A DNA stretch of 64,000 bases from a virus, in the IMG/VR virus record IMGVR_UViG_3300021963_000100, positions 7,719 to 71,718 of that record. The stretch is one strand, 5' to 3'. The translations under genes were made by a program, and so were the position numbers. Position 1 is the first letter of the stretch. Every line of letters begins with the position of its first letter. Below are positions 3,826-44,500 of the stretch, piece by piece. The notes under the pieces were generated by a model. That model saw only the letters and a list, made by a program, of their open reading frames with translations, was not told the origin of the DNA and searched no databases.

Positions 3826-4029
3826 ATGAAATCAACATTCTACTACATCACATTCATTGCATTCACTATCTTTGCATTTTGGGTTGCATTCACTTGGGAT
3901 ATCCCCGTTAACAATCAAATGGGTATGGCTTTTATGGGGGTTATGTGTTTCTCATTATTAGTTCTTTTAATCATTGAGGATATAAAGGAATTTGTTAAAA
4001 AGAGAAAAAATAAACCCCAAACATTTTGA
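3826..4029 (+). CDS. small two-helix membrane protein
   Basis: Two hydrophobic stretches and a basic C-terminal tail. Confidence 0.8.
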   Translation: MKSTFYYITFIAFTIFAFWVAFTWDIPVNNQMGMAFMGVMCFSLLVLLIIEDIKEFVKKRKNKPQTF

Positions 4030-4419: not shown

Positions 4420-4564
4420 AGAGTGTTTTTTTGATTAGATGAGGAATGGGGGTTAAACGAAAGTTTGCCCCTTTTCTTTTTAATTAAAAAAAAATTACAT
4501 TAAAATTTGCAAGTTAAATTTATTACACTTACCTTTGTATCATAAATCAAAAAACAAAAACAAA

Positions 4565-4819
4565 ATGAAAAAACAAGTTAACAAATTAGAAAAGAACTTT
4601 GATAAATTTTTTGCGGTGTATTATATCTTATTCGGTGTAATGCTTTTAACAACTTTAGTAAATGTAGCAAATGATTGTTTCATTTTCAAAGTTACTGAAT
4701 TGGTTATGGGGGTTACTTTTATGGTAACAATGTTTGCCCCTGTATTGCTTTATGGTTTATTATATTGGGTATATGAAAACCAAAAGAAACAAATACAAAC
4801 TGGCAACATAGCAGGTTAA
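4565..4819 (+). CDS. small two-helix membrane protein
   Basis: Start moved to ATG 4565; two hydrophobic segments. Confidence 0.75.
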   Translation: MKKQVNKLEKNFDKFFAVYYILFGVMLLTTLVNVANDCFIFKVTELVMGVTFMVTMFAPVLLYGLLYWVYENQKKQIQTGNIAG

Positions 4820-8569: not shown

Positions 8570-9175
8570 TTAAACTATGTCAGTTGATTCTAATAAAGTG
8601 TAACTAAATTTGTTTCCGTGTATCTTTGATGCTTTTTTGCATATCTTCATGAACTCATCGAAATCTTTCACTCTCTTAAATACTTGACAACCTTCGCTCC
8701 AGTTTTCAACCCAAGTTGAATCTTGGCCAGCTTTGTGGATATTGATTCCAAACATACCAGTATCGGTAACCGATTCGCTAAACATTAAATCTCTGTTCGC
8801 ATCTCTATATACTGTTACATTACCATTTCTCTGACATAATGCATCATATTTGCCCTGGTGTTTATCAACTGACCAAACGCTTCTATATTGTCCTGGTACC
8901 AATCTGGCAACACCTTTGTTATTGTGAAATTCCATAACACCCTTTTTACCAGGATCCGTGGTTGCATTCCAGCAATAAAATTGTTCAACCCCCGCTTCAT
9001 CCTTAAATGTAATGGTTAAATGATCATCAAATACATTGGTAACCTTATCCGCAACAGATGGGGCGTTATTTCTCACACCAACGATATTAACATCATATCC
9101 TTTATTGGCGGCATCATCAAACCATTTATAGCCTTTGGCTAACACGGTGTCTTTAATTTGTTCTTTTGTATACAT
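8570..9175 (-). CDS. L,D-transpeptidase (YkuD)-like peptidoglycan enzyme, candidate endolysin
   Basis: INIH-x12-SEGCQV resembles the YkuD His...SxGC catalytic motif. Confidence 0.65.
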   Translation of the reverse strand: MYTKEQIKDTVLAKGYKWFDDAANKGYDVNIVGVRNNAPSVADKVTNVFDDHLTITFKDEAGVEQFYCWNATTDPGKKGVMEFHNNKGVARLVPGQYRSVWSVDKHQGKYDALCQRNGNVTVYRDANRDLMFSESVTDTGMFGINIHKAGQDSTWVENWSEGCQVFKRVKDFDEFMKICKKASKIHGNKFSYTLLESTDIV

Positions 9176-10536: not shown

Positions 10537-11559
10537 TTAAGGTATAATTTGTTCCCCTTTGGAGATTTTTTCCATATATTCGGATTCGGTTAAAACAGCT
10601 CTTACGTCCCAATGGTCAGCCATCATGGTTTCTTTTGCATGATCTGATCTTCTTTTGGCACCATACGCACATTTTCTAACCAGATAATCGTATGATAGGT
10701 GTTTGTAATGTAATACGTATAATTCGGTGTCAGAATTGTAAACCACGTTACCAGTTGGGTAAGATTGGTGGCTACCATATGAATATCTCATATTAACCTC
10801 TTTTGGGTTGAATAGTACGTATTTATCTAAACCGCTACTCACCTCACCATTTTTTATAATATCTGGTAAATAAACTCCTGGTTGGAATTTTGGGAATTCA
10901 GTTGAGTACATTTCGTAACCATATGTAACTGGTATTGTAATCCCGTTTTTCTTATACTCAATAATTTTTTCTCTAATATTCGGGTGATATAAAAATTCAT
11001 CAGCATCAACAATGATAAACCAGTCGTACTCGTCTTTGTATTTCTTCCAGATTTCATTTCTGGATTCCATCAAATTGTATTCATTGTACTCTTTATGATC
11101 CTCAATGATTACCTCAACTTTACTACCAAAAGTTTTAAGGTACTCCACGGAACCGTCATCACTGTTTCCATCAGAAAAAATAATCTTATCAACACCAACA
11201 AAATTGAAATAGTAATCGATAAAGAATGGTAAGATATCAATCTCATTTTTGATTGGACAAACCACGCATATTTTTTGTCTTGGTATTGATGTTGTTTTTT
11301 TGAAAATAGCACTCCTAAGAATCGAAGTACCCCAAGAGTCCCAAACCTCAACTTTAATATTATCAGCGTCAACTATTATATCATTACCAAAAAAGTATTC
11401 ATTACCTTTTTCCAACAATATAACATAGTCCATATAAGTTAAATGCTCGTACTCATACCCATTATACTTATGAACCTTTAATTTTATCTCAATAGGGAAT
11501 CCAGATTGTAGAAAAATCCTACCAATACTGGTGTCATACTTAATATCAACGTTAACCAT
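10537..11559 (-). CDS. glycosyltransferase family 2-like (GT-A fold)
   Basis: PIKNE...DGNSDDGS...WFIIVDADEFL (DxD); TACTTTTG -7 box upstream on the minus strand. Confidence 0.85.
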   Translation of the reverse strand: MVNVDIKYDTSIGRIFLQSGFPIEIKLKVHKYNGYEYEHLTYMDYVILLEKGNEYFFGNDIIVDADNIKVEVWDSWGTSILRSAIFKKTTSIPRQKICVVCPIKNEIDILPFFIDYYFNFVGVDKIIFSDGNSDDGSVEYLKTFGSKVEVIIEDHKEYNEYNLMESRNEIWKKYKDEYDWFIIVDADEFLYHPNIREKIIEYKKNGITIPVTYGYEMYSTEFPKFQPGVYLPDIIKNGEVSSGLDKYVLFNPKEVNMRYSYGSHQSYPTGNVVYNSDTELYVLHYKHLSYDYLVRKCAYGAKRRSDHAKETMMADHWDVRAVLTESEYMEKISKGEQIIP

Positions 11560-11608
11560 AATTTTTTTTTACAAAAGTACCTAAAGATTTTTATTTGTAA
11601 ATAAACTA

Positions 11609-11770
11609 TTAGTTTTTTTTGATTTGGTGATAAGCCTTTTCAACTCTTTCGTGATGAGTCAATTTTGGGTGTGTAAATGCTAATTCACGGATTAGATTGT
11701 TTAGTTCGCTAATAAAGCCTTCCGTATGGGCTTCATAGTAAATTTCTTCTACGATCTCTTCATTAGTCAT
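11609..11770 (-). CDS. small hypothetical protein (53 aa, not in track)
   Basis: MTNEEIVEEIYYEAHTEGFISELNNLIRELAFTHPKLTHHERVEKAYHQIKKN*; late motif at 11787-11793. Confidence 0.7.
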   Translation of the reverse strand: MTNEEIVEEIYYEAHTEGFISELNNLIRELAFTHPKLTHHERVEKAYHQIKKN

Positions 11771-11854
11771 GGTAAGTGGTTTTCAGATAAATATATACGT
11801 TTTAAATTAAATTTTTAAGCAAAATTAAACTATTTATGTGAAAGTAATATTCCC

Positions 11855-12901
11855 ATGGAAAAAAATATATTAAACGAACAAATTTTGAGGATGCGAGAAA
11901 TTATGGGCATCAACGAAAGTGCGAAGGATCAATTTAAAAAAGATTTGCAAAACGATCCAGATTATAAAGAGTTTAAAGATAAAGCAATCGTACCTGGTAA
12001 AAACGGTGGAATTGATTATAGTTATGGTGTTGTTAACCCAGACAATGATCCGTTTATTAATAAAACCAGTCAAGATGACGATACCGATGAATTAGAAGAG
12101 GGTACGCTTTATAATATTAGCGGAGTTAGCTATGATGAAATGGCTAAAGCCGAAATAGGTTCAATTGTTGGTGATTTGAATAAAATTGCGCCATATGTTT
12201 TAGAAATTGGAGATAAAGTCAAAATGAGAGCTGATGGTGCTGTTGAGGTTTCGGATGAGGGTAGGATTGTTAGAATTTTTAAAAGCGCTGATAGTTTCTT
12301 AACTCAAATTGGATATAAAGCGATTTCAGTAAACGAGGATTTTGATGACACACTAACACATCATATTGAGGAGTCCGCTTATGACCAATCACATGGTTCA
12401 CCATATGATCGTGGACATGCTGATGCTTATTATGGTAGATCTAGAAATCCACATAAATGGCCTGAGGGTACTGGTCATGGCGAAAAAGTAACTGACTTAA
12501 CACCAGAAGAAATTGAGGCTTATAACGCTGGTTATGATGATTGTGACGATAGAAAGGATTGGGGTATGGATGAAAATACAAAAATGGAAACTGGCTCTGT
12601 TGGGATTATATCTAGAAGAGGTAAGATGATGCCAGCTTATTTTCAAAACTTTGGTCTTTCTGTTGCTGGTGATTTAGTTGAGTTTGATAACAATGGTAAA
12701 TTATTAAAAAAGGGTGGTGGTTATCCTGAAGGTGGTTTTAAAAAATATGAGACTGTTGATGAGTTAGAGAAAGACATCTGTGCTAATTACAATGAAATGT
12801 TAGAGATGTTTAAAACCATGGCACCTACAGAAGTTGAGCTTGGTGAAAATGAGAGTTCATATCAAATAATAAAAAATGCGGTTAACTGCGATTTATATTA
12901 A
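11855..12901 (+). CDS. acidic multi-module late protein with N-terminal tag
   Basis: ILNEQILRMREIMGI; HGSPYDRGHADAYYGR module. Confidence 0.85.
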   Translation: MEKNILNEQILRMREIMGINESAKDQFKKDLQNDPDYKEFKDKAIVPGKNGGIDYSYGVVNPDNDPFINKTSQDDDTDELEEGTLYNISGVSYDEMAKAEIGSIVGDLNKIAPYVLEIGDKVKMRADGAVEVSDEGRIVRIFKSADSFLTQIGYKAISVNEDFDDTLTHHIEESAYDQSHGSPYDRGHADAYYGRSRNPHKWPEGTGHGEKVTDLTPEEIEAYNAGYDDCDDRKDWGMDENTKMETGSVGIISRRGKMMPAYFQNFGLSVAGDLVEFDNNGKLLKKGGGYPEGGFKKYETVDELEKDICANYNEMLEMFKTMAPTEVELGENESSYQIIKNAVNCDLY

Positions 12902-12906
12902 ATAAA

Positions 12907-13305
12907 ATGACTAAAGAAACTAAAGTTATAGTTAGAGCTAATGGTGGTACTTGGAAAGTAACCGCTGATCATGCAAATTATACCACCATATCTGGTAGTG
13001 ACAAATTTGTTTGTCAAGGATCGGGGGATATCGATGTTGTGGGTGAATTTTATAACGATAGTATTGTTTTGCAATTTTTGGTTAACAATCCATGGATTGG
13101 TTCACCTTGGGCTGCTGTTGGACAATATTTGGGTGATATTGGTGGTTGGAAAAATGGTAGAACGTCTTTAAGTGAAGGTGAAGAACACATATTTGTACAA
13201 ACAATATACACGGATGATGATCATTGGGATTTTAAAACTAGAGTGGTAAGGTTAGCTGATACAGACACAAAAAACTTTGAAATCTGGCCAGGTTGGTGGG
13301 AGTAA
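12907..13305 (+). CDS. hypothetical protein
   Basis: 132-aa beta-rich ORF in operon. Confidence 0.8.
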   Translation: MTKETKVIVRANGGTWKVTADHANYTTISGSDKFVCQGSGDIDVVGEFYNDSIVLQFLVNNPWIGSPWAAVGQYLGDIGGWKNGRTSLSEGEEHIFVQTIYTDDDHWDFKTRVVRLADTDTKNFEIWPGWWE

Positions 13306-13315
13306 ATTAAATAAA

Positions 13316-13834
13316 ATGAAAAAAATATCATTAAACGAAGAGCTAAATAGAATGCTAGAAATTATGGGTGTTGAACCAAAAGATGGTCAGCAGTTGGATT
13401 TGTTTGCTGGTACGGATGATGCGCTACAAACAAATGATGACGAAACCTATAAGGGTAAGCGGGTAATGGTATATTATAATTTACACAAACACACGTTTTC
13501 AATACAATATAAAGGTTTAGTGGTAGCGCATGCTAACTACGTTAAATTAGGTAATGTTGAATTTAGGGTTAGGCAAGGCGGTCTTGAAAAAGTTCGTGAC
13601 GAAAAAAAGAAAAATGTGCATGCTTTTGTTATTGGTGATTTGATTGACTACGTTGAATACCCATCAACTGATATACCAACGCCAACAAGTTCAAAAATAA
13701 TAACATACGATCCTTATAAATACAGTTCATTTGTCTATAAAGATAATGAAAATCCTGTGTATAACGCCAATGAGGTAGAGATGATTAATCAACCAGGTGG
13801 TAAAATTTTCCAAATCCATGAAATTAAAAACTAA
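13316..13834 (+). CDS. tagged phage protein (VYYNLHK...KNVHAFVIG...YDPY)
   Basis: Start moved to ATG 13316; SLNEELNRMLEIMGV tag. Confidence 0.8.
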   Translation: MKKISLNEELNRMLEIMGVEPKDGQQLDLFAGTDDALQTNDDETYKGKRVMVYYNLHKHTFSIQYKGLVVAHANYVKLGNVEFRVRQGGLEKVRDEKKKNVHAFVIGDLIDYVEYPSTDIPTPTSSKIITYDPYKYSSFVYKDNENPVYNANEVEMINQPGGKIFQIHEIKN

Positions 13835-15578
13835 AAAATGTCTGTATGCCGCTCTGGTAATCCTATTTGTGTTTTTCATAGTAGAAACTTTAGTTGTTTT
13901 GGATATATTAGACCACTCCAAAAATTTAATTTATTTTAATTACATATGTGTTATATTATTCTCGCCATTGTTTTATGCTGTTGTTAAAGAATATATTTCA
14001 AACTCAAAAGAAATTAATAGGATTAATAAATATACTGAACGTTTAAGTGCAACTTTAATATCACAATCAAATAACACTTTATTCTACGAGGGTAAGGTTA
14101 CTGAGGGTGCTAAATTATTAACAAGTGAGGTTACCAAAACTATGGATGTTGATAGATGTTCAATTTGGTTATATGATGAAAATAAAACTTCAATTACTTG
14201 TGAACAATTATATATCAAATCAACGGATTCCTGGCAAGAAGATATGATTCTTAGAAAACAGGATTTTGAACCTTATTTTAGGGCACTAATCGATGATCCA
14301 ATAATAATAGCTAATGAAGCTGACCTACACCCAGCAACAAAATGTTTTACGGATAGTTATCTAAAACCGATTGGTATTAAATCAATGTTAGATGTGCCGA
14401 TAATATATAAAGGTGATATTATTGGGGTTATTTGTATTGAAAATTTAACCAAACGAGATTGGTTAGATGTTGAAGTAAATTTTGCTAGAACGTTATCATC
14501 GTTGTACGCTTTTGCTTATTCGATAAAAGAGAATAACACAATTAACAATAGTTTTGAGGAGTTTGAAAGTTTTGTTGATTCATCTGTGTTGGTAAGCTAT
14601 GCTGATGCTAAAGGTAAGATTACTTATGTAAATAAAAAATTTGAAAAAGTTTCTGGTTACAAATACAAAGAATTAATTGGTAAGGATCATAGTATTGTAA
14701 ATTCAAAAGAACACCCAAAGGAGTTCTGGAACGATATGTATAAAACGGTCGTTAAAGATAAAAAAATTTGGAATGGTATCGTAACCAATAAAAAGAAAAA
14801 TGGTGAACTGTATTGGGTTAACTCGTACATTAAAGCTGAATTTAATGAGGATAAAGAATTAACTGGTTTTGTATCGATAAGATATGAGGTTACGGATGTT
14901 GTTAGGGGTTCATTAGAGATACAAAAGAAAAACACATATTTAGAACACGCAGCAAAAATACTCAGACATGATATGCATTCAGGTATTAACACTTACATAC
15001 CTAGGGGTATCTCATCGCTTGAAAGACGTTTAACCCCAGAATTAATAGCTGAGTTAAAATTGGAGTCTCCATTAAAAATGCTTAAAGAGGGTTTAGCTCA
15101 CGCACAAAAAGTTTATAAGGGTGTTTATGAATTTACGAATCTGGTTAAAAACGATTCTAAATTAGAGACACAACCATCTGATTTAACTAAATTATTAACA
15201 GAATATTTATCAAGCACGGCTTATTCAAAACAAGTAGCAATAGATGCATTACCAACTGTTAATGTTAACCCACCGTTATTTTGTACAGCAGTTGACAATT
15301 TAATTCGTAATGGTTTAAAATATAACGATAGCGACTTTAAAATGGTTGCCGTATTTATGTTAAATGAAAATACAATTGGTGTGCAGGATAATGGGCGTGG
15401 CATGACGCAAGAAGAATTTGAACACTTATCAAAACCATATACAAGAAAACCAAATCAAAACGAACAAGGTACTGGTTTGGGTTTAAATATTTGTTTGGCC
15501 ATATTAAAAGAACACGGTTTCAGTGTTTCGTGTGAAAAAAACGAAGCTGGAACTTTAATGAAAATTAAATTAACATGA
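13818..15578 (+). CDS. sensor histidine kinase (2TM-GAF-PAS-HisKA-like-HATPase)
   Basis: GAF (VDRCSIWLYD...SMLDVPI...IGVICIE), PAS (DAKGKITYVNKKFEKVSGY...KKNGELYWV), H-box LRHDMH, N-box NLIRNGLKY, G1 DNGRGM, G2 GTGLGL; start moved to ATG 13818. Confidence 0.93.
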   Translation: MKLKTKKCLYAALVILFVFFIVETLVVLDILDHSKNLIYFNYICVILFSPLFYAVVKEYISNSKEINRINKYTERLSATLISQSNNTLFYEGKVTEGAKLLTSEVTKTMDVDRCSIWLYDENKTSITCEQLYIKSTDSWQEDMILRKQDFEPYFRALIDDPIIIANEADLHPATKCFTDSYLKPIGIKSMLDVPIIYKGDIIGVICIENLTKRDWLDVEVNFARTLSSLYAFAYSIKENNTINNSFEEFESFVDSSVLVSYADAKGKITYVNKKFEKVSGYKYKELIGKDHSIVNSKEHPKEFWNDMYKTVVKDKKIWNGIVTNKKKNGELYWVNSYIKAEFNEDKELTGFVSIRYEVTDVVRGSLEIQKKNTYLEHAAKILRHDMHSGINTYIPRGISSLERRLTPELIAELKLESPLKMLKEGLAHAQKVYKGVYEFTNLVKNDSKLETQPSDLTKLLTEYLSSTAYSKQVAIDALPTVNVNPPLFCTAVDNLIRNGLKYNDSDFKMVAVFMLNENTIGVQDNGRGMTQEEFEHLSKPYTRKPNQNEQGTGLGLNICLAILKEHGFSVSCEKNEAGTLMKIKLT

Positions 15579-16102
15579 GAAATTTTAAAATAGATCCATT
15601 ACATTCATACGTTGGCTTTAGAGTCAAGCATATGATGATTACCAATGTAAATGGTAGTTTTAAACAATTTGACGCTAAAATGGGTGCTAAATCTGATGAT
15701 TTTTCGGATGCGCAGATACATTTTGAGTGTGCTGTTGAATCCATAACAACAAATATACAAGATAGAGATGATCATTTAAAATCACCAGATTTTTTTGATT
15801 ATGAACAATACCCAGTGATTACGTTTAAATCGAGTGGTTTTATAAAAATTAATGATAGTGATTATAAAGTAACTGGTGATTTAACAATAAAAAATACTAC
15901 ATTACCGATTGAGCTTGAAGGTAAATATAATGGTAACGACATTGATATGCATGGTAATGTTAAGCACGGTTTTGAAATGTTTGCAAAAATCAACAGGAGT
16001 GATTTTGGGTTAACGTGTAATGCGTTAAGTGGTAAGGGTAATATGTTGATAAGTGAAGAAGTAAAAATAATAATTAATATATTAATGATTGAAATTTTAT
16101 AA
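15575..16102 (+). CDS. yceI: YceI-family lipid/polyisoprenoid-binding protein (no signal peptide)
   Basis: IDPLHSYVGFRVKHMMITNVNGSF...RDDHLKSPDFFD...GDLTIK...INRSDFGL. Confidence 0.93.
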   Translation: MRNFKIDPLHSYVGFRVKHMMITNVNGSFKQFDAKMGAKSDDFSDAQIHFECAVESITTNIQDRDDHLKSPDFFDYEQYPVITFKSSGFIKINDSDYKVTGDLTIKNTTLPIELEGKYNGNDIDMHGNVKHGFEMFAKINRSDFGLTCNALSGKGNMLISEEVKIIINILMIEIL

Positions 16103-16104
16103 AA

Positions 16105-16545
16105 ATGAAGGATATTATTGAATCAATACTATTGGTGGATGATGAGGATTTGTTCCACTTAGTGTTTGAGGATGCGTGCAGTTTGCTTGACATCACATTA
16201 ACATTAGAATCAATTAACAGCGCTGAAGACGCTGAAAATTTATTTAAAACAAAATACAGGGATATTAATTCAAGACCCACATGTGTTTTTGTTGATCTTA
16301 ATATTATTGGGTCATCATTTGACGGTATTGAATTAGTCAGAAGAATAAATTTTGTTCATGGTAATAATGTCGTAATTGGTATTATATCATCAAGTAATGA
16401 ACAAGAGGAGCAAACTAAAGCCGTTAAAGCTGGGGCTCAGTTTTGGATTATTAAATCAGATGAGATTGAACCTAGGTTAGAGGAATTTAAAAAAGATTTT
16501 CCATTATATAAGGAAAGATTGGCTCCGTTTAAAATATATAAATAA
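16105..16545 (+). CDS. single-domain response regulator (receiver only)
   Basis: ILLVDDE, VFVDLN (phospho-Asp), DGIELV, ISSS, AGAQFWIIK. Confidence 0.9.
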   Translation: MKDIIESILLVDDEDLFHLVFEDACSLLDITLTLESINSAEDAENLFKTKYRDINSRPTCVFVDLNIIGSSFDGIELVRRINFVHGNNVVIGIISSSNEQEEQTKAVKAGAQFWIIKSDEIEPRLEEFKKDFPLYKERLAPFKIYK

Positions 16546-16550
16546 AAGTA

Positions 16551-17144
16551 ATGTTTAAATTAACTAAAGAAACTAAAAAATGTCTAATTGAGATATATAA
16601 AAACAAAAATATATCTCTAGAAGGTAATATATTGAAGTTAATAGATGTGGATGGTGAGGAAGATGCGGAATTTAACGAATATATTAAAAATGCTATTACT
16701 TTAGATAAAGATGTGAGGAGAAAACGTTTAGATATTACAAAACAAATACAATCGCAAAACAAACAATTATTAGCAGCACAAAAAGAAAATGAAAAACTAA
16801 TGACCGAATTAAAATCAGCGTTAGATGAAGCTAAAGATGCAAAATTAGAAGCTGAAAAATTACGTGATGCTGCCGTTGAGGATTTAGATACATTACAGAA
16901 AAGGACGCAATTCGAATTGATTGGATTAATAGTCAAAAGCGCATTATATGTTATAATTGGAGTTGGTTTAATCACAACTGGGTTATACATTTTTGCGATG
17001 ACTAATCATTATGATACAAAAATACTTGAGTCATCTTGGAGTAATATGTTTGGAATTTTATTAACAAATTCATTTAGTATCATTGGTACAATAATGGGTG
17101 TTAAATATGCCACGGATAATAGTAAAAAAACAGAAAATAAATAA
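16551..17144 (+). CDS. coiled-coil protein with two C-terminal TM helices
   Basis: Heptad-rich centre and two hydrophobic segments; 5 nt downstream of the receiver gene. Confidence 0.85.
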   Translation: MFKLTKETKKCLIEIYKNKNISLEGNILKLIDVDGEEDAEFNEYIKNAITLDKDVRRKRLDITKQIQSQNKQLLAAQKENEKLMTELKSALDEAKDAKLEAEKLRDAAVEDLDTLQKRTQFELIGLIVKSALYVIIGVGLITTGLYIFAMTNHYDTKILESSWSNMFGILLTNSFSIIGTIMGVKYATDNSKKTENK

Positions 17145-17149
17145 AAAAA

Positions 17150-17992
17150 ATGAAAGAATTTGCATATAACACAGGATCACCAATATACGGAACAGATCAA
17201 ATTGGTGATTTAGCCGTTGGTGCGGCCAATGGTAATTACGAGTACACAAATAATCCACAATTCTGGGGGGGTGCTGATGATACCACGGGGTATATCATAG
17301 CAGCGCCAGTTCCAGATAACTCACAACCAACACCAATACCTGGTGTAACAGCATCGGTTTGTTTTTATGGTACAGGTAATACAGAATCAGAGTTTATTTT
17401 TTTAGCAAATACATTAAGCGGCCAAGATTTCACAAGTGGTAATGAGGCTAGTGTATGGTTAAATAGTAATGGTTATTGGAGTAATTGGTCTGGTTTTGGT
17501 AGCTCTGGGTTCCAATGGATGACAATGACTGAGATTAACGAAAGTGATGCCCATGGGATAGGACAAAATAACATCACAATTAATATTACACAATCGGGCG
17601 GTGGTATGGGTATTGAGCCTGGTATGTACAATGCCAATACATTCCCTGAAGAATACGGTGTGCCTCTTGTTGGTGACCAAATTCAAAACAGCCAGGATGG
17701 TGTATTTACTGCAACATTTAGTCAACCTGTGACGGATCCTTTAGTTGCGTTTGCGAGTGTTGGTAATCCAAGTCTATATGTCCCAGTGATTGTTTCAGCA
17801 CCGTTCACACCAATTTGGGGTCAAAATACAACATATCAAAACCAATCAGGATCACAATACACACAGTTTACTGGTAACGAAGGGTTTAATATTATCCGTA
17901 TAGATGGTACTCACACGTCAATTACCTTTAACTACACCGTTGCTGAGTACTACAGTACAATTTGTTTCGGGTTTGTTGATCAAAACCCATAA
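17150..17992 (+). CDS. putative virion accessory protein, paralogue family member 1
   Basis: G/T/N-rich; N-terminal domain of about 110 aa shared with 18006, 19026, 20886. Confidence 0.7.
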   Translation: MKEFAYNTGSPIYGTDQIGDLAVGAANGNYEYTNNPQFWGGADDTTGYIIAAPVPDNSQPTPIPGVTASVCFYGTGNTESEFIFLANTLSGQDFTSGNEASVWLNSNGYWSNWSGFGSSGFQWMTMTEINESDAHGIGQNNITINITQSGGGMGIEPGMYNANTFPEEYGVPLVGDQIQNSQDGVFTATFSQPVTDPLVAFASVGNPSLYVPVIVSAPFTPIWGQNTTYQNQSGSQYTQFTGNEGFNIIRIDGTHTSITFNYTVAEYYSTICFGFVDQNP

Positions 17993-18005
17993 ATCATATT
18001 AGAAG

Positions 18006-18986
18006 ATGAGTAATAAAGTTGTAGCATATAACAGTGGTTCGGTAACAGCATACGGTACCAAATATGGTAATCTTGAGGTTGGTACTGTTGCCAACGATTA
18101 TAGAAAAAATACAGGTGGGTTAACTTGGTATAACTCACCAAACTTTGGTAATGATTATGTGATGATCTCAAACACATATGATTTAGGTTTATCCACACAA
18201 GGTAACGCTAAACCACTATTTTGGGTTGCAACAAATGATAATGATTTTTTAACCATTGTAAATAAATTACATGATAATCGTAATGCGGCACCGTTAGGTA
18301 CCGTAGCGGATGCGATAAATTGGGTTAACGCTAGTAATAAGTATTATTTAGTTAACACACCATCAGCTTTTGTTAGTGGTGGTTTGGTTCTTAATTTATT
18401 ATCAGCACCAACATCAGGTTCTGTGTGGACTGATACACAAGGTTCTTATAATGGTACAATAACAAACGGAACATATACATCTGATCATGGTGGTGGTATT
18501 ATTTTAAATAATGGAACTGTTGGATTAAATTATAATTTAGGTGCTAGATGGACTGTTGAAGTTATTGCTAAAGGCCAAGCGGTTCAAACATACTGGGCTT
18601 CATTATGGGGTGAAGAAGTTTGGGGTTCCAGAGGTTGGACGTGTTATGCCGCTTCTGCTGGAACGTGGACTGTTACCCCAGCTAGTTTTGGTTCTGTTGC
18701 TAATTTTTCGGCTACAATGACTAATATAAATCATTATGCAATAAGTTATGATGGTACAAATATTAGAATGTATGTAAACGGTATCAAACTAGCAACATCA
18801 GCTTCGGCACCACCAACACCATCAGCTCAAGGGTTTTTATTTGGTGCTAGACACACAAATGGTGGTACTGGGGCAACAGATTATTTTAAAGCCACATATT
18901 ACCAAATGAGAATATACAACACAAATATTTCTGACGCAGATGTAACAACTAATTTCAATGCAATAAAAACAACCTATGGGTTATAA
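18006..18986 (+). CDS. putative virion protein with C-terminal LamG/ConA-like domain
   Basis: WTVEV...HYAISYDGTNIRMYVNG...QMRIYNTNIS pattern. Confidence 0.8.
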   Translation: MSNKVVAYNSGSVTAYGTKYGNLEVGTVANDYRKNTGGLTWYNSPNFGNDYVMISNTYDLGLSTQGNAKPLFWVATNDNDFLTIVNKLHDNRNAAPLGTVADAINWVNASNKYYLVNTPSAFVSGGLVLNLLSAPTSGSVWTDTQGSYNGTITNGTYTSDHGGGIILNNGTVGLNYNLGARWTVEVIAKGQAVQTYWASLWGEEVWGSRGWTCYAASAGTWTVTPASFGSVANFSATMTNINHYAISYDGTNIRMYVNGIKLATSASAPPTPSAQGFLFGARHTNGGTGATDYFKATYYQMRIYNTNISDADVTTNFNAIKTTYGL

Positions 18987-19025
18987 TGATAATAATCAAA
19001 CTATTTATAGTTAATATAAATTAAT

Positions 19026-19817
19026 ATGAGAAACGAAGTAAAATATGACCCAATTAATGGTAAAACAATACAGGTTAGTGACACTAACACTGATTATACA
19101 ATTGGAGATTGGGTAGCTGGTATAGATGATACAGTTGGTTATGTGATTGTATCAGATACAACAACGCTTAATGCTGTTGGTTCTGGTACTGGGGGTGGTT
19201 TGGGTGATCCAGCTGGTGCTAATATGCCAGTTTTTTGGCAATCAACTGGTAGAACGGATAATGCGTTAATTGATTTATTAAATAAAATACCAGGATCGCC
19301 AGGTATGTTTACTGATATTAACACGGCATTAATGTGGTTATCGACCTCACCAATGTCGCTTACTGGTTATAATAATAACCCAACGGGTACGGCATTGGAT
19401 GGTGATTATTTCTTATTTGCACAATATTCACCAGCTATGTCATCTGGTTCTATAACATTCCCAAATCACGAAATTGGCACTTATGATTTAAACCCAAACC
19501 ATGTTGGTCAATACAGTTTTGGTATGTATGATACACAATTATATATAAATAAGTTTGCATTTGGTGATGTGAGTAATGAAGCAATTTTTAATCAATTTGT
19601 TGGTAAATCTGGCACCTTAACTTTAACACAGGGGTCTAATAGTGTTACATATGCATTTACCAATCAAGCGTTTGAAAATAGCAGTTATGGTGGCACTAAC
19701 TTATATGCCGATAATCACTTTGAAAATAGTGTTTCAGGTTCAATTACCGTTATATCTCCAGCGTCTGGTGAATTTAATACAACACAACCAATAACTATTA
19801 GCTACACACTAAACTAA
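19026..19817 (+). CDS. putative virion accessory protein, paralogue family member 3
   Basis: Shared N-domain (DDTVGYVIVSDT...PVFW...LLNKI...ALMWL); late motif at 19002. Confidence 0.7.
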   Translation: MRNEVKYDPINGKTIQVSDTNTDYTIGDWVAGIDDTVGYVIVSDTTTLNAVGSGTGGGLGDPAGANMPVFWQSTGRTDNALIDLLNKIPGSPGMFTDINTALMWLSTSPMSLTGYNNNPTGTALDGDYFLFAQYSPAMSSGSITFPNHEIGTYDLNPNHVGQYSFGMYDTQLYINKFAFGDVSNEAIFNQFVGKSGTLTLTQGSNSVTYAFTNQAFENSSYGGTNLYADNHFENSVSGSITVISPASGEFNTTQPITISYTLN

Positions 19818-19825
19818 ATTAACTT

Positions 19826-20062
19826 ATGGAATATAGAATTAAATTTGAGGTTTATAATAGATTTAACCACCTAATAAAAGAAGAGTTAAAATCTGTGATA
19901 ATTAATGAGCCAACTGTTGCCGAAATAAAAGATTTATTCCCAAAAGACCAGTATGGTAATATTGAATCTGAAATTTTTATTGGTAATGGTGGTAGACGTG
20001 ATTTGGTTGATATTGATTTAGTTAATCAAGTTTGGGTTAAATATGTTATTAAATTAAACTAA
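19826..20062 (+). CDS. hypothetical protein
   Basis: 78-aa ORF. Confidence 0.65.
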   Translation: MEYRIKFEVYNRFNHLIKEELKSVIINEPTVAEIKDLFPKDQYGNIESEIFIGNGGRRDLVDIDLVNQVWVKYVIKLN

Positions 20063-20796
20063 ACCTCATCATCACCAAAATCTGGATTGAATATTTTATA
20101 TTCTTCGATATCCAATATTAAATAATATTCACCTTCGGGTGTGAATTTAATAACCTCATCTTCATCACGAATAACTTCTTGTTCATACCCTAAGTCGCCT
20201 TGGGTATGTTTAAATATAATATTCATAACTTGTGGATTCATAATAAATGTATCATCCACCTTTGTTTCAAATATAACTGGGACATTTATAATATTTTCCC
20301 ATTCTTTACCCCTAAACCCACTAGAGAAAAATAAAGACGCTGTCCAACTAGTAACATCCCTGTTTGGTTTATATGGGAATGGTGTTTTAAATTTAAGGTA
20401 GGATCCATTATCGAACTCTTCAAATTCTGGATTTTGTTTTAACCAATTACTTAATACTGGTAATTTAACTGACGTACCCCTATATACTAACTTACCGTAT
20501 GGTGGATTTAAAATTTCTGGGAAATATTGTTTTAGTTTGGTTAAATCGGAAACTGTTGATATTATTTTAGCTGCGCTAGAATCGGTAGATGATTGAGTCC
20601 AAGTCTTTAAATTTTTTAATATGTTGGTTTCTAAAGGAGTGTTTTTTTCTGGTTCTTTGTTTTGTATACCAGCTATTTGTGGGTTAGAACCAAATAAAAC
20701 ATTACCCACTTGTTGTTGGATGGCTTTTGGTATTGCCCTCTCATCCAAATTCAAGATGGTACGCATTCGATTTATTTGCTCATTTAAATTACCCAT
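20059..20796 (-). CDS. ADP-ribosyltransferase-like protein (R-S-E type) with N-terminal tag
   Basis: VYRG...TSWT...EDEV in the expected order; LNEQINRMRTIL tag. Confidence 0.6.
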   Translation of the reverse strand: MGNLNEQINRMRTILNLDERAIPKAIQQQVGNVLFGSNPQIAGIQNKEPEKNTPLETNILKNLKTWTQSSTDSSAAKIISTVSDLTKLKQYFPEILNPPYGKLVYRGTSVKLPVLSNWLKQNPEFEEFDNGSYLKFKTPFPYKPNRDVTSWTASLFFSSGFRGKEWENIINVPVIFETKVDDTFIMNPQVMNIIFKHTQGDLGYEQEVIRDEDEVIKFTPEGEYYLILDIEEYKIFNPDFGDDEV

Positions 20797-23381: not shown

Positions 23382-23519
23382 ATGAACCAATTAACTGAAA
23401 ATGAAATCAAAGAATTGATTGAATTTAAAAATTTAATTATTAAATTAATTAATGACATTCCAAATGATATGGAATTGGGTGAAAAAATAAGGAGAAAAAT
23501 AATTAAAGAAGAAAAATGA
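23382..23519 (+). CDS. small protein with PNDxxLGxxIR motif (45 aa, not in track)
   Basis: MNQLTENEIKELIEFKNLIIKLINDIPNDMELGEKIRRKIIKEEK*; TATCTTTG -7 box at 23353-23360; ATGA overlap with the next gene. Confidence 0.75.
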   Translation: MNQLTENEIKELIEFKNLIIKLINDIPNDMELGEKIRRKIIKEEK

Positions 23520-23782
23520 TATACTTATTAAAATTTTTAGGGGTTATGCTAGCAATGGCGATAACCGATGTTTGTTGGGCTTTTTATTTTATAAAAGTTG
23601 ATGAAAGAAGACCTGTTGGTGCTGGTTTGTGGGCTACAGCGTTATTTATCTGTGGGGCTACTGTTACAGCTAACTATGTTGAGGATAAATCATTAATGAT
23701 TGCGGCAGCATTAGGTTCGTTTATAGGTACTTGGGCAACTATTGAATACAAAAAAAGGAAGGAATTGAGTAATAAAAAATAA
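23516..23782 (+). CDS. small three-helix membrane protein
   Basis: Three hydrophobic segments, AALGSFIGTW. Confidence 0.8.
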   Translation: MIYLLKFLGVMLAMAITDVCWAFYFIKVDERRPVGAGLWATALFICGATVTANYVEDKSLMIAAALGSFIGTWATIEYKKRKELSNKK

Positions 23783-39018: not shown

Positions 39019-41484
39019 ATGAAAGAAAAAATGTCAAATGAGTTGAGACAGGCCTTTACAATTGGTCGTGAGTCTGCTGTCCGTTATCACGATAGTAAAT
39101 TAAGATTAGAACATGTACTATATGGTATAATGACATCAAAGAACATAATCCATGAAATTTTAAAAGAGAAGGTATCGGATTATGATTTATTAATAAATGA
39201 TGTTGAAAACTACATCAAGCGCCAATCGGATAATGATTCAGAGGTTAACTCTGAAAGTATATTAAAATTTGAAATGTCTTTGCAAGATGTGTTAAAATCA
39301 TGTGCAAAAAGTAAAAGGGTTGATGAGTACATTAGCGCTGAATTATTTTTTACCGTTTCTTTTGACTTAAATATTGCTATTATTAAGATAATAAAAGATT
39401 ACGGTATTTCTAAAACTTTTATTAAACAAAAATTAAAGCAATTAAATGTATCGGCTATGTATTTCTCTGATGAAGATAATAACAAAAAAAACTTTCAAAA
39501 CGAAAACCAAACAAATAAAACAAAAAGCAAAACACCAATCTTAGACAATTTTGGTAGGGATTTAACGGCATTGGCTAATGATGATAAATTAGATCCTATT
39601 ATTGGTAGAGATAGTGAGGTTGAGCGTGTGGCTCAAATATTAACAAGACGTAAGAAAAACAACCCAGTTTTAATCGGTGATCCTGGTGTTGGTAAAACAG
39701 CAATCGCTGAAGGTCTAGCAATTAAAATCGCAAAAAATGAATGCCCTAGACCTTTACAAGGTAAGCGATTGGTTACATTAGATTTAACATCAATGGTGGC
39801 TGGAACTAAATACCGTGGTCAATTTGAGGAAAGAATTAAAGGTTTATTAGATGAGGTTAGGGATAACCCAAATATTATTTTATTTGTTGACGAATTACAT
39901 ACGTTAGTTGGTGCTGGTAACTCTTCTGGTTCATTAGATGCCGCAAACGTATTTAAACCAGCTTTGGCACGTGGTGAAGTTCAATGTATTGGTGCTACAA
40001 CTTTAGATGAATATCGTGAGCATATTGAAAAAGACGGTGCTTTAGATAGGAGATTTCAAAAAGTAATAGTTAACCCACCTACATTGGAACAAACAAAAGA
40101 AATCTTAATGAATATACGTGAAAAGTATCAAGATTTCCATAAAGTGGAATATACTGATGATGCTATTGATGAGATCATTAGATTATCTGATAGGTACATC
40201 ACAAATCGTGAATTCCCAGATAAAGCCATTGATATTTTGGATGAGGCTGGTTCTAGAACTCAAGTTAGCATAAAGCCACCGCAAAAAATTAAGGAGCTTG
40301 AGGATTCAATAAAAGAAATTAAAAAGCAAAAAAGTGAGGTTGTTAAGAGTCAAAATTATGAAAAAGCAGCCGATTTGCGTGATTTAGAGAAAAAAACAAC
40401 CACTGAATTAGAAAAAGAAACTAAAATTTGGAAGGACACCATTAACACAAAAAGAATGGTTGTTACAGATGAAATGATTTGCGAAGTTGTTTCAATGATG
40501 ACTGGTATCCCTATTAGTAAAATATCACAAAACGAGATTAAAAAATTAATTAATATTGATAAAGAAATCTCAAATACAGTAATTGGTCAGGATGAGGCTA
40601 TACAGAAGGTGGCTTCAGCTATTAAGAGAAATAGAACGGGTATCCGTAGACAAAATAGACCAATTGGTTCATTCTTGTTTATTGGGCCTACAGGTGTGGG
40701 TAAAACCGAATTAGCTAAAGTATTAGCTGAAAAGATTTTTGGTAGTGAGGATGCTATGATTCGAATTGATATGTCGGAATATGGTGAAAAATTCAACACA
40801 TCTAAATTGATTGGTTCACCTCCAGGTTATATTGGTTATAATGAAGGTGGGCAATTAACTGAAAAGGTTAAGAATAAACCATACTCATTAGTGTTATTTG
40901 ATGAAATTGAAAAGGCTCACCCAGATGTGTTTAACGTTTTATTACAATTATTGGATGAGGGTCATTTAACGGATGGATCTGGTAGAAAAATTAATTTTAA
41001 AAACACCATAATAATTATGACATCAAATATTGGTTTAAAAGATGTGCAGGATTTTGGTGTAAAAATTGGGTTCTCAACTGACGAAGATTCATTAAAATCC
41101 TCACAAGATATTATAGAAAAAAGTCTAAAAAAAGCATTCAAACCAGAATTTTTAAATCGCTTGGATGAGATTGTATATTTTAACTATTTGGGTCAAGGGG
41201 AAATTTTAAAAATCATTGACTTACAATTGAATGAGTTATCAGATAGATTAAAAGAATCTAATTATTCTTTCAAAATCTCAAAAACAGCAAAGGAAAAATT
41301 AGCTGAACTTGGTTTTAATAAAAATTATGGTGCTAGAGAATTACAAAGAACAATTCAAAAGTATATCGAGGATCCAATGTCAGATGAGTTGCTTAAAAGT
41401 GGTATGCCTAAAGAATGTCAATTTAATATTAGTTACGATAGCAAAAAGAATAAAATCGTTTTAGATATACAGCAAAAACAATAA
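39019..41484 (+). CDS. clpC: ClpC-type AAA+ chaperone / Clp protease ATPase subunit
   Basis: Two AAA modules (GDPGVGKT/VDELH; GPTGVGKT/FDEIEKAHP), short UVR-type middle coil (YEKAADLRD), IGF loop. Confidence 0.92.
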   Translation: MKEKMSNELRQAFTIGRESAVRYHDSKLRLEHVLYGIMTSKNIIHEILKEKVSDYDLLINDVENYIKRQSDNDSEVNSESILKFEMSLQDVLKSCAKSKRVDEYISAELFFTVSFDLNIAIIKIIKDYGISKTFIKQKLKQLNVSAMYFSDEDNNKKNFQNENQTNKTKSKTPILDNFGRDLTALANDDKLDPIIGRDSEVERVAQILTRRKKNNPVLIGDPGVGKTAIAEGLAIKIAKNECPRPLQGKRLVTLDLTSMVAGTKYRGQFEERIKGLLDEVRDNPNIILFVDELHTLVGAGNSSGSLDAANVFKPALARGEVQCIGATTLDEYREHIEKDGALDRRFQKVIVNPPTLEQTKEILMNIREKYQDFHKVEYTDDAIDEIIRLSDRYITNREFPDKAIDILDEAGSRTQVSIKPPQKIKELEDSIKEIKKQKSEVVKSQNYEKAADLRDLEKKTTTELEKETKIWKDTINTKRMVVTDEMICEVVSMMTGIPISKISQNEIKKLINIDKEISNTVIGQDEAIQKVASAIKRNRTGIRRQNRPIGSFLFIGPTGVGKTELAKVLAEKIFGSEDAMIRIDMSEYGEKFNTSKLIGSPPGYIGYNEGGQLTEKVKNKPYSLVLFDEIEKAHPDVFNVLLQLLDEGHLTDGSGRKINFKNTIIIMTSNIGLKDVQDFGVKIGFSTDEDSLKSSQDIIEKSLKKAFKPEFLNRLDEIVYFNYLGQGEILKIIDLQLNELSDRLKESNYSFKISKTAKEKLAELGFNKNYGARELQRTIQKYIEDPMSDELLKSGMPKECQFNISYDSKKNKIVLDIQQKQ

Positions 41485-41555: not shown

Positions 41556-44500
41556 ATGGCTGTAATATATTTAAGGCATGTACTGCAACGTCCGCTTACG
41601 TTTGGTGAGTTAGACGCAAACTTTGAAAATCTAAATAATGCAATACAAAATTTAGGTCTAGACGATCTAACTGATGTTGTAATTTCTACTGGTGTAACCA
41701 CTGGAGACTTTTTGGTCTTTGATGGTACCAATTGGGTTAATAAACACTTATCTCCAGCGGTAACGCCAGAGTATATTGTAACGTATGACCCAGCTACTGG
41801 TGATTTTACATACACACAAATAAATCCAGGTGCAACAATTTCATCCACACCCCCAACAGGTTTAACTGCTGGGGCTTTGTGGTTTAATGATGCTGATGGT
41901 ATATTATATATTCTATACGATGGTGTAAACTGGATACCCGCAACTTCGGTATTAAACGGAACATCAGGTACATCGGGTATCGCTGGCACATCAGGTATAG
42001 ATGGTACTTCTGGTACATCGGGTGAGTCTGGTACGTCTGGAACAGCTGGTGAAAGCGGAACTTCTGGTTCTTCAGGTGAGTCTGGAACTTCTGGTTCTTC
42101 AGGTGAAAACGGTACATCGGGAACTAGCGGAACCTCAGCGAGTGGGGCTAATTATTATGGGTCATTTAGTGATTCAACAACACAAGTGGTTTCTGGTGCT
42201 AACACACCAACAGTTGTTACATATGATACAACTGAAATATCTAATGAAATTAATGTAGTAGCTGGTTCACAAATAACATTTGTTAATACTGGTGTATATG
42301 AGGTAGGGTATTCAGCTCAAATTGAAAAAACTCAAGGTGGTGCTCAAGCTGATGTTGACATATGGCTTAGAAAAAATGGTACTGACATTATTAGAACTGA
42401 TTCCATATTAGGTTTAGTTTCAAATTCAGTTAAAAATTTACCATTCGTTTCAATTATTTCAGAATTTAATGCGGGTGATTATATTGAGATCTTATTTGCT
42501 TCTAGTTCTAATCATGTGCAATTAACAGCAGTACCAGCACAAGCAACACCGTACCCACACCCAGCAGCACCATCAATTATTGTTGTTGCTAAGCAAATTG
42601 GTATGATGTTGCAAGGTGATTCTGGATACTCAGGCACTAATGGTACTTCTGGAACTGCGGGTACATCTGGTACTTCTGGAACTGCGGGTACATCGGGTGA
42701 ATCTGGAACATACGGAACAAGTGGTGAAGATGGTACCTCAGGAACATCGGGTACAAGTGGTGAGTCTGGAACATCAGGTACATCTGGTGAAGATGGAACT
42801 ACAGGAACAAGTGGAACTTCGGGAGAATCTGGAACATCAGGTACATCTGGTGAAGATGGAACTACAGGAACAAGTGGAACTTCAGGTGAATCTGGTAGTA
42901 CAGGAACAGCTGGAACTTCAGGTGAAGACGGTTCTACGGGAACGTCTGGAACATCTGGTGAAAGTGGAACTTCTGGTACTTATGGGACATCTGGTGAAGA
43001 TGGAACCACAGGAACAAGTGGTACTTCAGGTGAGTCTGGAACAAGTGGAACATACGGAACAAGCGGTGAGGATGGAACATCAGGCACATCAGGAACAAGT
43101 GGGACTTCTGGCTTAAATGGTATAAATGGTATTGACGGTACTTCTGGTATCTCTGGAACATCGGGTTCAAGTGGATCTAATGGTACTGCGGGCACATCTG
43201 GGGAAGATGGAACGACAGGTACCTCAGGAACATCAGGGGAATCGGGAACAACGGGTACAGCTGGAACAAGTGGTGAAGACGGTACAACAGGTACGGCTGG
43301 TACAAGTGGTGAGTCTGGAACAAGTGGGACATCTGGAACATCGGGTGAGGATGGGACAACTGGTACATCTGGAACTTCAGGTGAGTCTGGAACAAGTGGA
43401 ACATACGGAACAAGCGGTGAAGATGGTACTTCAGGAACTTCTGGAACCTCAGGGGAATCTGGAACTTCAGGAACATACGGAACAAGCGGTGAAGATGGTA
43501 CAACTGGAACAAGTGGAACAAGTGGTGAGTCTGGTACGTCAGGAACGTCTGGAACAAGTGGTGAAGATGGTACGACTGGAACAAGTGGAACAAGTGGTGA
43601 ATCTGGAACAACGGGTACTAATGGTACATCAGGTGAAGATGGTACAACTGGAACAAGTGGAACAAGTGGTGAGTCTGGAACTTCTGGTACCTATGGAACT
43701 TCAGGGGAGGATGGTACAACGGGAACAAGTGGAACTTCGGGAGAATCTGGAACTTCAGGTACAAATGGTATTAGTGGTGTAAATGGTGTTTCTGGAACTT
43801 CAGGAGAATCTGGAACAAGTGGTACAGCAGGGACAAATGGTACTTCAGGTGAGGATGGAACAAGTGGTACATCAGGAACATCAGGTGAATCTGGAACTTC
43901 AGGAACATACGGAACAAGTGGTGAAGATGGTACAACTGGAACAAGTGGAACTTCAGGTGAATCTGGTAGTACAGGAACAAGTGGAACATCTGGTGAAGAT
44001 GGTACAACGGGAACATCAGGAACTTCTGGTGAGTCAGGAACTTCAGGAACATACGGAACAAGCGGTGAAGATGGTACAACTGGTACATCGGGTACATCTG
44101 GTGAAAGTGGAACAACTGGAACATCGGGTACATCTGGTGAAAGTGGAACTAGTGGTACTTACGGTACTTCGGGAGAAGACGGAACTACGGGTACATCTGG
44201 AACTTCAGGTGAATCTGGGTCTACTGGAACATCTGGAACTTCTGGTGAAGATGGTACAACTGGTACGTCAGGAACTTCAGGTGAATCTGGGTCTACTGGA
44301 ACAGCTGGAACTTCAGGAGAGGATGGGACAAGTGGAACTTCTGGTACATCAGGGACAAGTGGGTTAAATGGTATAAATGGTATTGACGGTACTTCTGGTA
44401 TCTCTGGAACATCGGGTTCAAGTGGATCTAATGGAACATCTGGAACTTCAGGTGAGGACGGAACAAGTGGTACATCTGGTACTAGTGGAGAATCTGGGAC

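Follow-up and report, generated by a model that had tools for sequence, protein, structure and literature searches.

A phage-borne kinase, receiver and membrane hairpin module with a possible role in lysis timing

When to lyse the host is a key question in the life history of a phage, and to our knowledge few ways to adjust it have been described, namely the lysis inhibition of T4-type phages and of ICP1, and N4. In bacteria, LytSR and CidR place the holin-like Lrg and Cid proteins under transcriptional control of the two-component type, which is exerted by a DNA-binding regulator. Class II holins, e.g. the S pinholin of phage 21, span the membrane with two transmembrane (TM) segments in an N-in/C-in topology and end in a charged C-terminal tail. 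Sensor domains usually reach their output either via a relay, as in two-component systems, or by sitting directly on it, as in one-component systems. For T4, the holin T is described as being held by the antiholins RI in the periplasm and RIII in the cytoplasm, with a similar arrangement in the Vibrio phage ICP1 (PMC11413866, PMC8385771, PMC7182436). Here, these systems are compared with a four-gene module located at positions 13818-17144 of a 64,000-nucleotide (nt) stretch of virus DNA (positions 7,719 to 71,718 of the IMG/VR record IMGVR_UViG_3300021963_000100), which is referred to as the window. The module encodes a sensor histidine kinase, a YceI-like protein, a stand-alone receiver and a membrane protein with two TM helices, termed the hairpin protein.

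The evidence presented below tips slightly in favour of viewing this module as a phage-owned phosphorelay with a post-translational output that would tune holin-type lysis control. A literature search turned up no description of a module of kinase, receiver and membrane protein in phages or of lysis proteins with fused PAS domains, and the supplements of huge-phage surveys may list such genes; the relevant passages of PMC7824862 concern a different, kinase-less type of receiver.

Components and conservation of the module

The four genes are located on the plus strand, and their junctions consist, in order, of a 4-nt ATGA overlap, a 2-nt gap and a 5-nt gap. The GC content is even across the region (0.31-0.34). 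Contigs from the sequencing runs of other studies bridge the junction of the receiver and hairpin genes (16371-16831) as well as those of the kinase, YceI and receiver genes (14679-16501 and 15522-16501), and the gene order is therefore not an assembly artefact or chimera. In a first survey set, composed of 21 IMG/VR loci from two scans and the window (survey loci carry L-numbers), the kinase, receiver and hairpin genes are adjacent and keep their order in 22 of 22 loci, with flanking genes that vary by clade. A profile scan of IMG/VR identified at least 548 viral contigs that encode a relative of the hairpin protein, of which the best 80 were kept. In addition, a word-based protein search yielded 5,187 clusters at E <= 0.001, on contigs of up to 362 kb, and the family occurs in marine, estuarine and freshwater metagenomes. 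The final tally comprises 102 loci, leaving out L030, L047 and L095 because their hairpin open reading frame (ORF) was not intact in ORF calling, and dereplication at 90% hairpin identity condensed these loci into 56 groups. Of the 52 groups whose hairpin protein possesses an N-terminal domain (N-domain), 51 also have the receiver; in the exception, L096, the receiver is cut at the contig edge. The remaining four groups have neither, and a receiver without the N-domain was found in none. The junction between receiver and hairpin genes was measured in 51 cases; the two genes share 1 or 4 nt in 37 of them and are separated by 2-8 nt in nine. Since GAF domains, PAS domains and YceI vary between loci, the core of the module is limited to the kinase core, the receiver and the hairpin protein, complemented by GAF, PAS and YceI as optional inputs.

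The kinase gene (13818-15578, plus strand, with an alternative GTG start at 13797) codes for a protein in which Pfam models detect a GAF domain (residues 107-240, E 2.9e-17), a PAS_9 domain (265-366, E 1.6e-11) and a HATPase_c domain (496-592, E 2e-13). Two N-terminal hydrophobic segments (residues 13-31 and 38-56 if numbering starts with the ATG at 13818) mark the protein as membrane-anchored, and at least one N-terminal hydrophobic segment is found in 45 of 52 kinases from representative loci. The HATPase_c match reaches 51.2 bits (cut-off 26.4), in line with a catalytic ATP-binding domain, for which N, G1, F and G2 boxes are typical; the N box (NLIxNGLxYN), G1 (DNG.G) and G2 (G.GLGL) are kept in all 12 aligned phage kinases. 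A profile of the kinase core matches solved HK853/EnvZ-type kinases (E 5e-13), one of which, 8f71, aligns from profile position 8 of the core. No HisKA-type Pfam model matches the kinase at E <= 0.01, so the H-box in its dimerization and histidine phosphotransfer (DHp) domain is truly atypical for Pfam. The stretch KKNTYLEHAAKILRHDMHSGINTYxPRG, which contains this H-box, is near-invariant in the 12 aligned phage kinases, and its RHDMHSG segment is invariant in all of them. This invariance, together with the H-[DE]-hydrophobic-basic pattern, makes His384 (numbered from the ATG at 13818) the likely phospho-acceptor. The sensor part differs among loci and consists of GAF and PAS, of PAS only, or of a bare two-TM anchor that precedes the catalytic core. 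Tandem kinase pairs ahead of a single receiver gene and a single hairpin gene were observed in L007, L023, L073 and L093, and in L007 a gene for 202 amino acids (aa) is inserted between the two kinases.

The receiver gene (16105-16545, plus strand) encodes a CheY-like protein that matches PF00072 with 35.1 bits (cut-off 30.2). The residues of the canonical phospho-site, D12, D13, D64, S95-S97 and K117, are invariant in 11 of 11 phage receivers, and the mean column identity over these orthologues amounts to 78%. Among natural proteins of solved structure, 3ilh is the best relative (E 4.5e-6), and in the alignment with it the DD, the Asp and the SSS stretch are placed opposite the same motifs; the RphyB protein 4zyl is also near. 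No output domain was detected in the receiver, and as a DNA-binding domain is missing, control would have to be post-translational.

The presumed output of this relay is the hairpin protein (16551-17144, plus strand). It comprises the N-domain (residues 1-35), a cytoplasmic coiled coil (approximately 36-120), two TM helices (123-141 and 166-184) and a short charged C-terminal tail, and its structure model (predicted local distance difference test, pLDDT, 82) shows a long helix at 36-151 and a second helix at 157-195. The second TM helix, WSNMFGILLTNSFSIIGTIMGVKYA, is near-invariant in all 22 aligned sequences and features the polar residues N165, T172, N173, S176 and T180, which suggests that it faces a fixed helix-helix partner or has a lining role. 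A scan of one genome per species across 185,579 prokaryote species returned eight loci, all on contigs of metagenome-assembled genomes with eight different lineage labels, a pattern that fits mis-binned phage DNA. The three Atlas clusters displayed of 30 hits are 100% viral, and the family is virus-only within the collections scanned. In PHROG, the protein matches nothing but a portal family, weakly and through its coiled coil (E 0.006). A comparison with the PADLOC defence models produced no match for the kinase, YceI and receiver, and one weak coiled-coil match (E 0.0011) for the hairpin protein. Labels such as 'Fe2+ transport protein B', 'FlhF' and 'YkvA' among hairpin homologues are scattered automatic assignments and were discarded as uninformative.

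The second gene of the module (15575-16102, plus strand) codes for an accessory member, a putative lipid-binding protein of the YceI family that matches PF04264 with E 5e-43 and 147.4 bits (cut-off 23.7). Residues 4-169 align with profile positions 1-148 of 150, and the match thus begins too close to the N-terminus to accommodate a signal peptide. YceI-family proteins bind isoprenoid or other lipid ligands in their barrel. The gene is present in nine of the 102 loci (5/56 groups), where it always adjoins the kinase gene, and three arrangements can be distinguished: kinase-YceI-receiver-hairpin (window and L018), YceI-kinase-patatin-receiver-hairpin (L002-L006) and GH19-YceI-kinase core-receiver-hairpin (L036 and L049). 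The patatin-like phospholipase gene of the second arrangement (L002:3000-3992, E 4e-21; also in L003-L006) lies between kinase and receiver, and in the same clade an Hsp70/DnaK gene comes after the hairpin gene.

The origins of the components were traced by comparison with sampled Bacteroidota genomes. YceI matches in 242 of 301 genomes, with a best identity of 51%, and the nearest bacterial homologues likewise have no signal peptide. In a tree whose bacterial rows are the 20 best Bacteroidota hits, with no other phylum sampled, the YceI proteins of the phages, six in number, are united in a single clade (support 97/98) that groups with five of the 20 Bacteroidota rows (82/90); the bacterial row L128 is placed on a very long branch, probably owing to a bad frame, and was kept in the run and ignored in the reading. 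YceI was probably acquired in one old capture of a cytoplasmic-type protein from a Bacteroidota-like source and has since been kept beside the kinase, and this origin hints at a Bacteroidota host. The best match of the receiver in the 301 genomes shows 32% identity (E 4e-8), as opposed to 61-87% between phages, and the kinase core reaches 29-31% (E 4e-14) in 151 genomes, as opposed to 56-76% between phages. These values argue against a recent capture of kinase core and receiver.

The original prediction for this locus, made from the sequence of the window, had described four tightly coupled genes, encoding a kinase with GAF and PAS domains, intact N, G1 and G2 boxes and an atypical H-box, a receiver with DD, D, S and K residues and no output domain, a cytoplasmic YceI and a two-TM coiled-coil protein. 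These observations are confirmed by the gene packing, the Pfam matches and the residues conserved in 12 of 12 kinases and 11 of 11 receivers, and the interpretation attached to them is partly supported. The module is indeed phage-borne and not nested among close bacterial orthologues (best identities of 29-32% for kinase core and receiver), and its linkage with the membrane gene is conserved, both in the 22 first loci and in 51 of the 52 groups with an N-domain. Revision is required for YceI, which does not belong to the core of the module, and for the GAF and PAS domains of the kinase, which are optional. Complete kinase/receiver pairs, which had been described as uncommon in lytic phages, are not rare in this phage lineage.

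Lysis genes and the role of the hairpin protein

The gene neighbourhood of the module points to host lysis. Of the 56 groups, 38 carry a lysis-type gene no more than 3 kb from the module, and in 35 groups such a gene is found within 1 kb; if peptidoglycan-degrading enzymes are considered on their own, 35 groups have one within 3 kb. The types counted were GH19 endolysin, Phage_lysozyme, Peptidase_M15_3, YkuD-like peptidase, Phage_holin_4_1-like proteins and small two-TM holin-like proteins. According to Pfam and PHROG, the commonest neighbours include an endolysin that combines PG_binding_1 with GH19, Phage_lysozyme, Peptidase_M15_3, Phage_holin_4_1-like proteins, e.g. in L029 with 28.3 bits (cut-off 22.2), and small two-TM proteins with charged tails. 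The type of enzyme, the gene order and the side on which the lysis genes are found differ between clades, which indicates that the link to lysis has survived rearrangement and enzyme replacement. In addition, the N-in topology, two TM helices and charged C-terminal tail of the hairpin protein resemble a class II holin. Judged as a holin or antiholin, the protein thus has a fitting topology and tail, together with an atypical size and N-terminal extension.

A second line of evidence is provided by variants in which the hairpin is fused to a sensor. All four groups whose hairpin protein has no N-domain also have neither kinase nor receiver. Of these groups, L026 to L029, all but L027 were characterised. 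In L028 and L029, the coiled coil and hairpin are preceded in the same protein by two PAS domains, and both genes reside inside lysis cassettes, which in L029 show the order small two-TM gene, PAS-PAS-hairpin, GH19 and holin_4_1; L026 is flanked by a GH19 endolysin. A search of the whole library with the hairpin part found 100 representatives (P-numbers), and in almost all of them the hairpin is C-terminal. Among the ten longest or oddest representatives that were scanned, five contain PAS or GAF domains, among them P0177 (GAF-hairpin), P0179 and P0187 (PAS-hairpin) and P0180 (PAS-PAS-hairpin); P0152 is another protein of the PAS-PAS type. As the same types of sensor occur either on the kinase or on the hairpin protein, the hairpin can be viewed as the output, with kinase and receiver forming a relay that has been inserted ahead of it. 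A direct receiver-hairpin (Rosetta-stone) fusion was found neither among two longer proteins nor among the 100 representatives. P0240 was rejected as a fusion, its similarity to an RNA polymerase domain being a chance coiled-coil match. In P0167 (224 aa), a glycosyltransferase family 2 domain is joined to the hairpin part, which may represent a gene-call fusion.

These features can be combined into the following model. The kinase would sit in the inner membrane of the host on its two helices, with almost no outside loop, and read a cytoplasmic or membrane-borne cue via its GAF and PAS domains and perhaps also via its membrane helices. YceI would probably hold a hydrophobic isoprenoid-type ligand or deliver it to the kinase. 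Upon autophosphorylation at the His of RHDMHSG, the phosphate would be transferred to Asp64 of the receiver, which in one of its phosphorylation states would dock on the N-domain or the coiled coil of the hairpin protein. Docking would alter the behaviour of the two-helix hairpin in the membrane and shift the time of holin-dependent permeabilisation. Through the relay, the condition of the infected cell would thereby determine whether permeabilisation and the release of endolysin are advanced or delayed. The hairpin protein most likely belongs to the lysis machinery, as a holin or a holin regulator, and the role of an antiholin-like regulator appears more likely than that of the holin itself, given that most cassettes carry other holin candidates. 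The original prediction had proposed a circuit that would sense the redox, energy or membrane state of the host and control a membrane effector, e.g. for lysis timing. The comparative context favours such an effector, but in the window the module does not adjoin lysis genes.

Several observations weigh against a role in lysis control. The window is one of 18 of the 56 groups without a recognised lysis gene within 3 kb. For the hairpin protein, no Pfam family was found at E <= 0.01 and no PHROG holin family was matched, and a Foldseek search of its model against the PDB gave nothing, with a best E of 5.9. A near-invariant second helix is unlike that of a typical, fast-evolving holin, and the cassettes that contain the hairpin gene usually also harbour other holin candidates, so that the hairpin protein is perhaps not the holin itself. 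One of the holin assignments is borderline, since the holin_4_1 match in L008 scores 21.7 and stays under the cut-off of 22.2. Regarding the counts, the 56 groups are related phages and do not represent independent events, and the expectation of a few per cent for lysis genes within 3 kb is an estimate rather than a computed control. Finally, it is from sequence comparison that we infer phosphotransfer, the receiver-hairpin contact, the role in lysis, the signal and the direction of the effect. Complex predictions for the receiver with residues 1-120 of the hairpin protein scored 0.47, 0.45 and 0.55, as opposed to 0.62 for a control with an unrelated protein, and were used neither for nor against binding.

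Part of these points would also be explained if the relay were real and the hairpin protein served a different membrane process, such as superinfection exclusion, control of ion or proton flux, or remodelling during the long infection of a jumbo phage. The groups without a nearby lysis gene, among them the window, and the missing holin family match are in line with this alternative, as is the conserved polar second helix, which suggests a fixed partner or a channel rather than a generic holin. Furthermore, several kinds of membrane genes cluster in these regions. Yet such a process would not account for peptidoglycan-degrading enzymes within 3 kb in 35 of 56 groups, across enzyme types and gene orders, or for the placement of the one-gene PAS-hairpin forms between holin-like genes and endolysins, and it is considered unlikely, at roughly one chance in a handful.

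Less probable still is a module that manipulates host signalling, in which the kinase would act on host regulators, or the receiver would drain phosphate from host kinases, with the hairpin protein as a co-sensor or scaffold. Single-domain receivers can act as phosphate sinks, which would suit a receiver without output, and accessory membrane proteins that modulate intramembrane-sensing kinases exist, a role open to a hairpin protein that shares the membrane with the kinase. However, PAS- or GAF-fused hairpins occur without kinase or receiver, which argues that the hairpin acts on its own downstream of a sensor. The co-occurrence of N-domain and receiver (51 groups with both, four with neither, none with a receiver and no N-domain) also speaks against this alternative, and with approximately 30% identity to receivers of the sampled Bacteroidota, the phage receiver bears no sign of mimicking a host partner. 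It is highly improbable that the four genes have no phage-specific role and were recently captured from bacteria, are carried as a passenger 'moron' or result from chimeric assembly. YceI is clearly of the Bacteroidota type, and GAF, PAS, HATPase_c and receiver domains are typical of bacteria. However, kinase core and receiver are without close matches in the sampled Bacteroidota, at least 548 viral contigs retain the trio, the single clade of phage YceI proteins does not indicate several captures, the junctions are bridged by contigs from other studies, and the GC content is even.

The interpretation as a phosphorelay for lysis control can be extended to a broader proposal, which is put forward tentatively and with somewhat less than even confidence. 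Large aquatic phages might time the burst of their hosts by a phosphorelay of their own, in which the membrane kinase responds to a cytoplasmic, lipid or redox cue, aided in the window by a YceI carrier that samples an isoprenoid (a quinone or polyprenyl carrier), and switches the hairpin protein by way of the receiver. The result would be an intracellular form of lysis inhibition, with interchangeable two-component and one-component versions in hundreds of phages. If true, viruses would run bacterial-style phospho-signalling for their own decisions, beyond the hijacking of host regulators. Considering the abundance of the family (at least 548 IMG/VR contigs and 5,187 clusters), an effect on burst size or timing could matter for carbon turnover in aquatic habitats. 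In addition, swappable PAS, GAF and YceI inputs on a fixed output might provide a compact switch for engineered lysis control.

Genomic surroundings of the module

The window covers most of the 71,718-base virus record, for which CheckV estimates a completeness of 24%, and the record is therefore a fragment of a large phage. Phage-type genes in the window include those for a UvrD-like helicase, a ClpB/ClpC-like ATPase, a Phage_L5_gp82-family protein and fibre-like proteins, and no tRNA was found in it. Among GenBank phages, neither the DNA of the window nor the hairpin and receiver proteins gave a match, and a cultured relative was not found there. The module is flanked by the Phage_L5_gp82-family gene on one side and by the fibre-like genes on the other, and is contained in a run of nine packed genes (11855-18986) with intergenic gaps of at most 13 nt. 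A promoter-like motif, CTATTTAT (11830-11837, plus strand), is located 25 nt ahead of the gene at 11855, the first of this run. The window holds nine copies of the motif, compared with an expectation of 4.5 +/- 2.0, a number reached in three of 100 shuffles. Eight of the nine copies are found 8-31 nt 5' of an ORF start, in sense orientation, and the starts served in this way include 11855, 19026, 25777 and that of a giant gene at 41556. On the plus strand, no copy occurs between 11830 and 19001, where the next one is placed. This arrangement fits a single transcription unit behind a putative phage promoter. The late timing assumed in the original prediction would depend on this promoter-like motif, and 'late' is suggested by the kind of genes that carry it. 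Scans of 11400-20200 for consensus promoters and terminators gave counts equal to those of shuffles (50 vs 47.8 and 5 vs 3.2) and were not used. Two proteins encoded 5' of the kinase gene, at 11855-12901 and 13316-13834, share a similar N-terminal stretch (LNEQILRMREIMG vs LNEELNRMLEIMG).

The nearest candidate endolysin in the window is encoded 4.6 kb upstream of the module on the minus strand (8570-9175), and it is uncertain whether this gene belongs to the module. The protein has no Pfam match and is assigned by PHROG to phrog_3000 and to phrog_33083, 'endolysin' (E 2e-11). Its model (pLDDT 88) resembles peptidoglycan L,D-peptidases of the YkuD fold: the top 20 VIA rows are all of the YkuD type (Z 8.9-5.3), with the next row at Z 3.3, and the root-mean-square deviation from 6xj7 is 4.1 over 126 residues. 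Foldseek matches of the model are weak (best E 4e-3). Across 17 sequences of the family, H147, S160, G162 and C163 are invariant, the latter three forming the SxGC motif at 160-163. Homologues are frequent neighbours of the module. In the representative loci L014 (6560-7168), L016, L017, L068 and L075 they follow the hairpin gene at a distance of 3-25 nt, and in L028 (8699-9508) a homologue is fused to PG_binding_1. From their endolysin positions and the modelled fold, these YkuD-like proteins may represent an undescribed type of endolysin.

Small membrane proteins are encoded elsewhere in the window and in related loci. A classic holin-like candidate is the 88-aa ORF at 23516-23782 (plus strand), 6.4 kb 3' of the hairpin gene, which shows two hydrophobic segments and a lysine-rich tail; further small two-TM ORFs were noted at 3826-4029 and 4535-4819. 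In 30 loci, a two-TM protein of 62-102 aa with a conserved FCPSKW motif is encoded directly 5' of the kinase (e.g. L008:1085-1285), between a holin_4_1-like gene and the kinase gene, and in these clades the module may include it as an additional component.

Further downstream, a full-length double AAA+ ATPase of the ClpB/ClpC type (39019-41484, plus strand) matches phrog_4871 with E 2e-254. At approximately 42 kb, the GC content climbs from about 0.32 to about 0.45, exactly at the onset of two giant ORFs at 41556-53114 (3852 aa) and 53186-63964 (3592 aa). Since the opposite strand also has long ORFs there, repetitive low-complexity coding is suggested for 41556-63964.

Relation to known signalling and lysis systems

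By analogy, the nearest functional counterpart of the module would be the lysis inhibition of T4-type phages and ICP1. In both cases, a phage device would turn a signal into holin timing, using small membrane or membrane-associated proteins that are encoded with lysis genes, and, as proposed here, a cytoplasmic factor would target the portion of a membrane lysis protein that faces the cytoplasm, in the manner of T4 RIII. The hairpin protein has no sequence or family relation to the T4 components, and no holin T-type or RI-type match was found in Pfam or PHROG. The topology and the input differ as well: whereas T4 responds to superinfection through direct protein binding in the periplasm, the input of the module would be cytoplasmic and pass through a kinase and receiver or through fused PAS and GAF domains.

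Class II holins share with the hairpin protein two TM helices, a short outside loop and a charged C-terminal tail, and in most relatives the hairpin gene is found beside endolysins. The hairpin protein departs from them by a cytoplasmic N-terminal extension of approximately 120 residues, consisting of a coiled coil and a small domain, by the lack of a holin family match, by its unusually conserved second helix, and by the other holin candidates that usually share its cassette. LytSR and CidR represent a further parallel, in that a two-component system is tied to holin-like membrane proteins and lysis. In contrast to these chromosomal systems, the genes of the module are phage-borne and its receiver is devoid of a DNA-binding domain.

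Mechanistically, the nearest family is that of classical two-component systems with a single-domain receiver. The module shares the HK853/EnvZ-type core of DHp and catalytic domains and the complete set of residues for receiver phospho-chemistry with HK853-RR468, CheA-CheY and the pairs of phytochrome-type kinases and Rcp-type receivers, and its output, as proposed here, would likewise operate by protein contact instead of DNA binding. It differs from these systems in being virus-encoded, in having no HisKA Pfam match, in the free gain and loss of sensor domains between related phages, and in its fixed partner, a virus-only membrane hairpin. The module can be regarded as a variant of two-component signalling and, in its proposed role, of holin/antiholin control.

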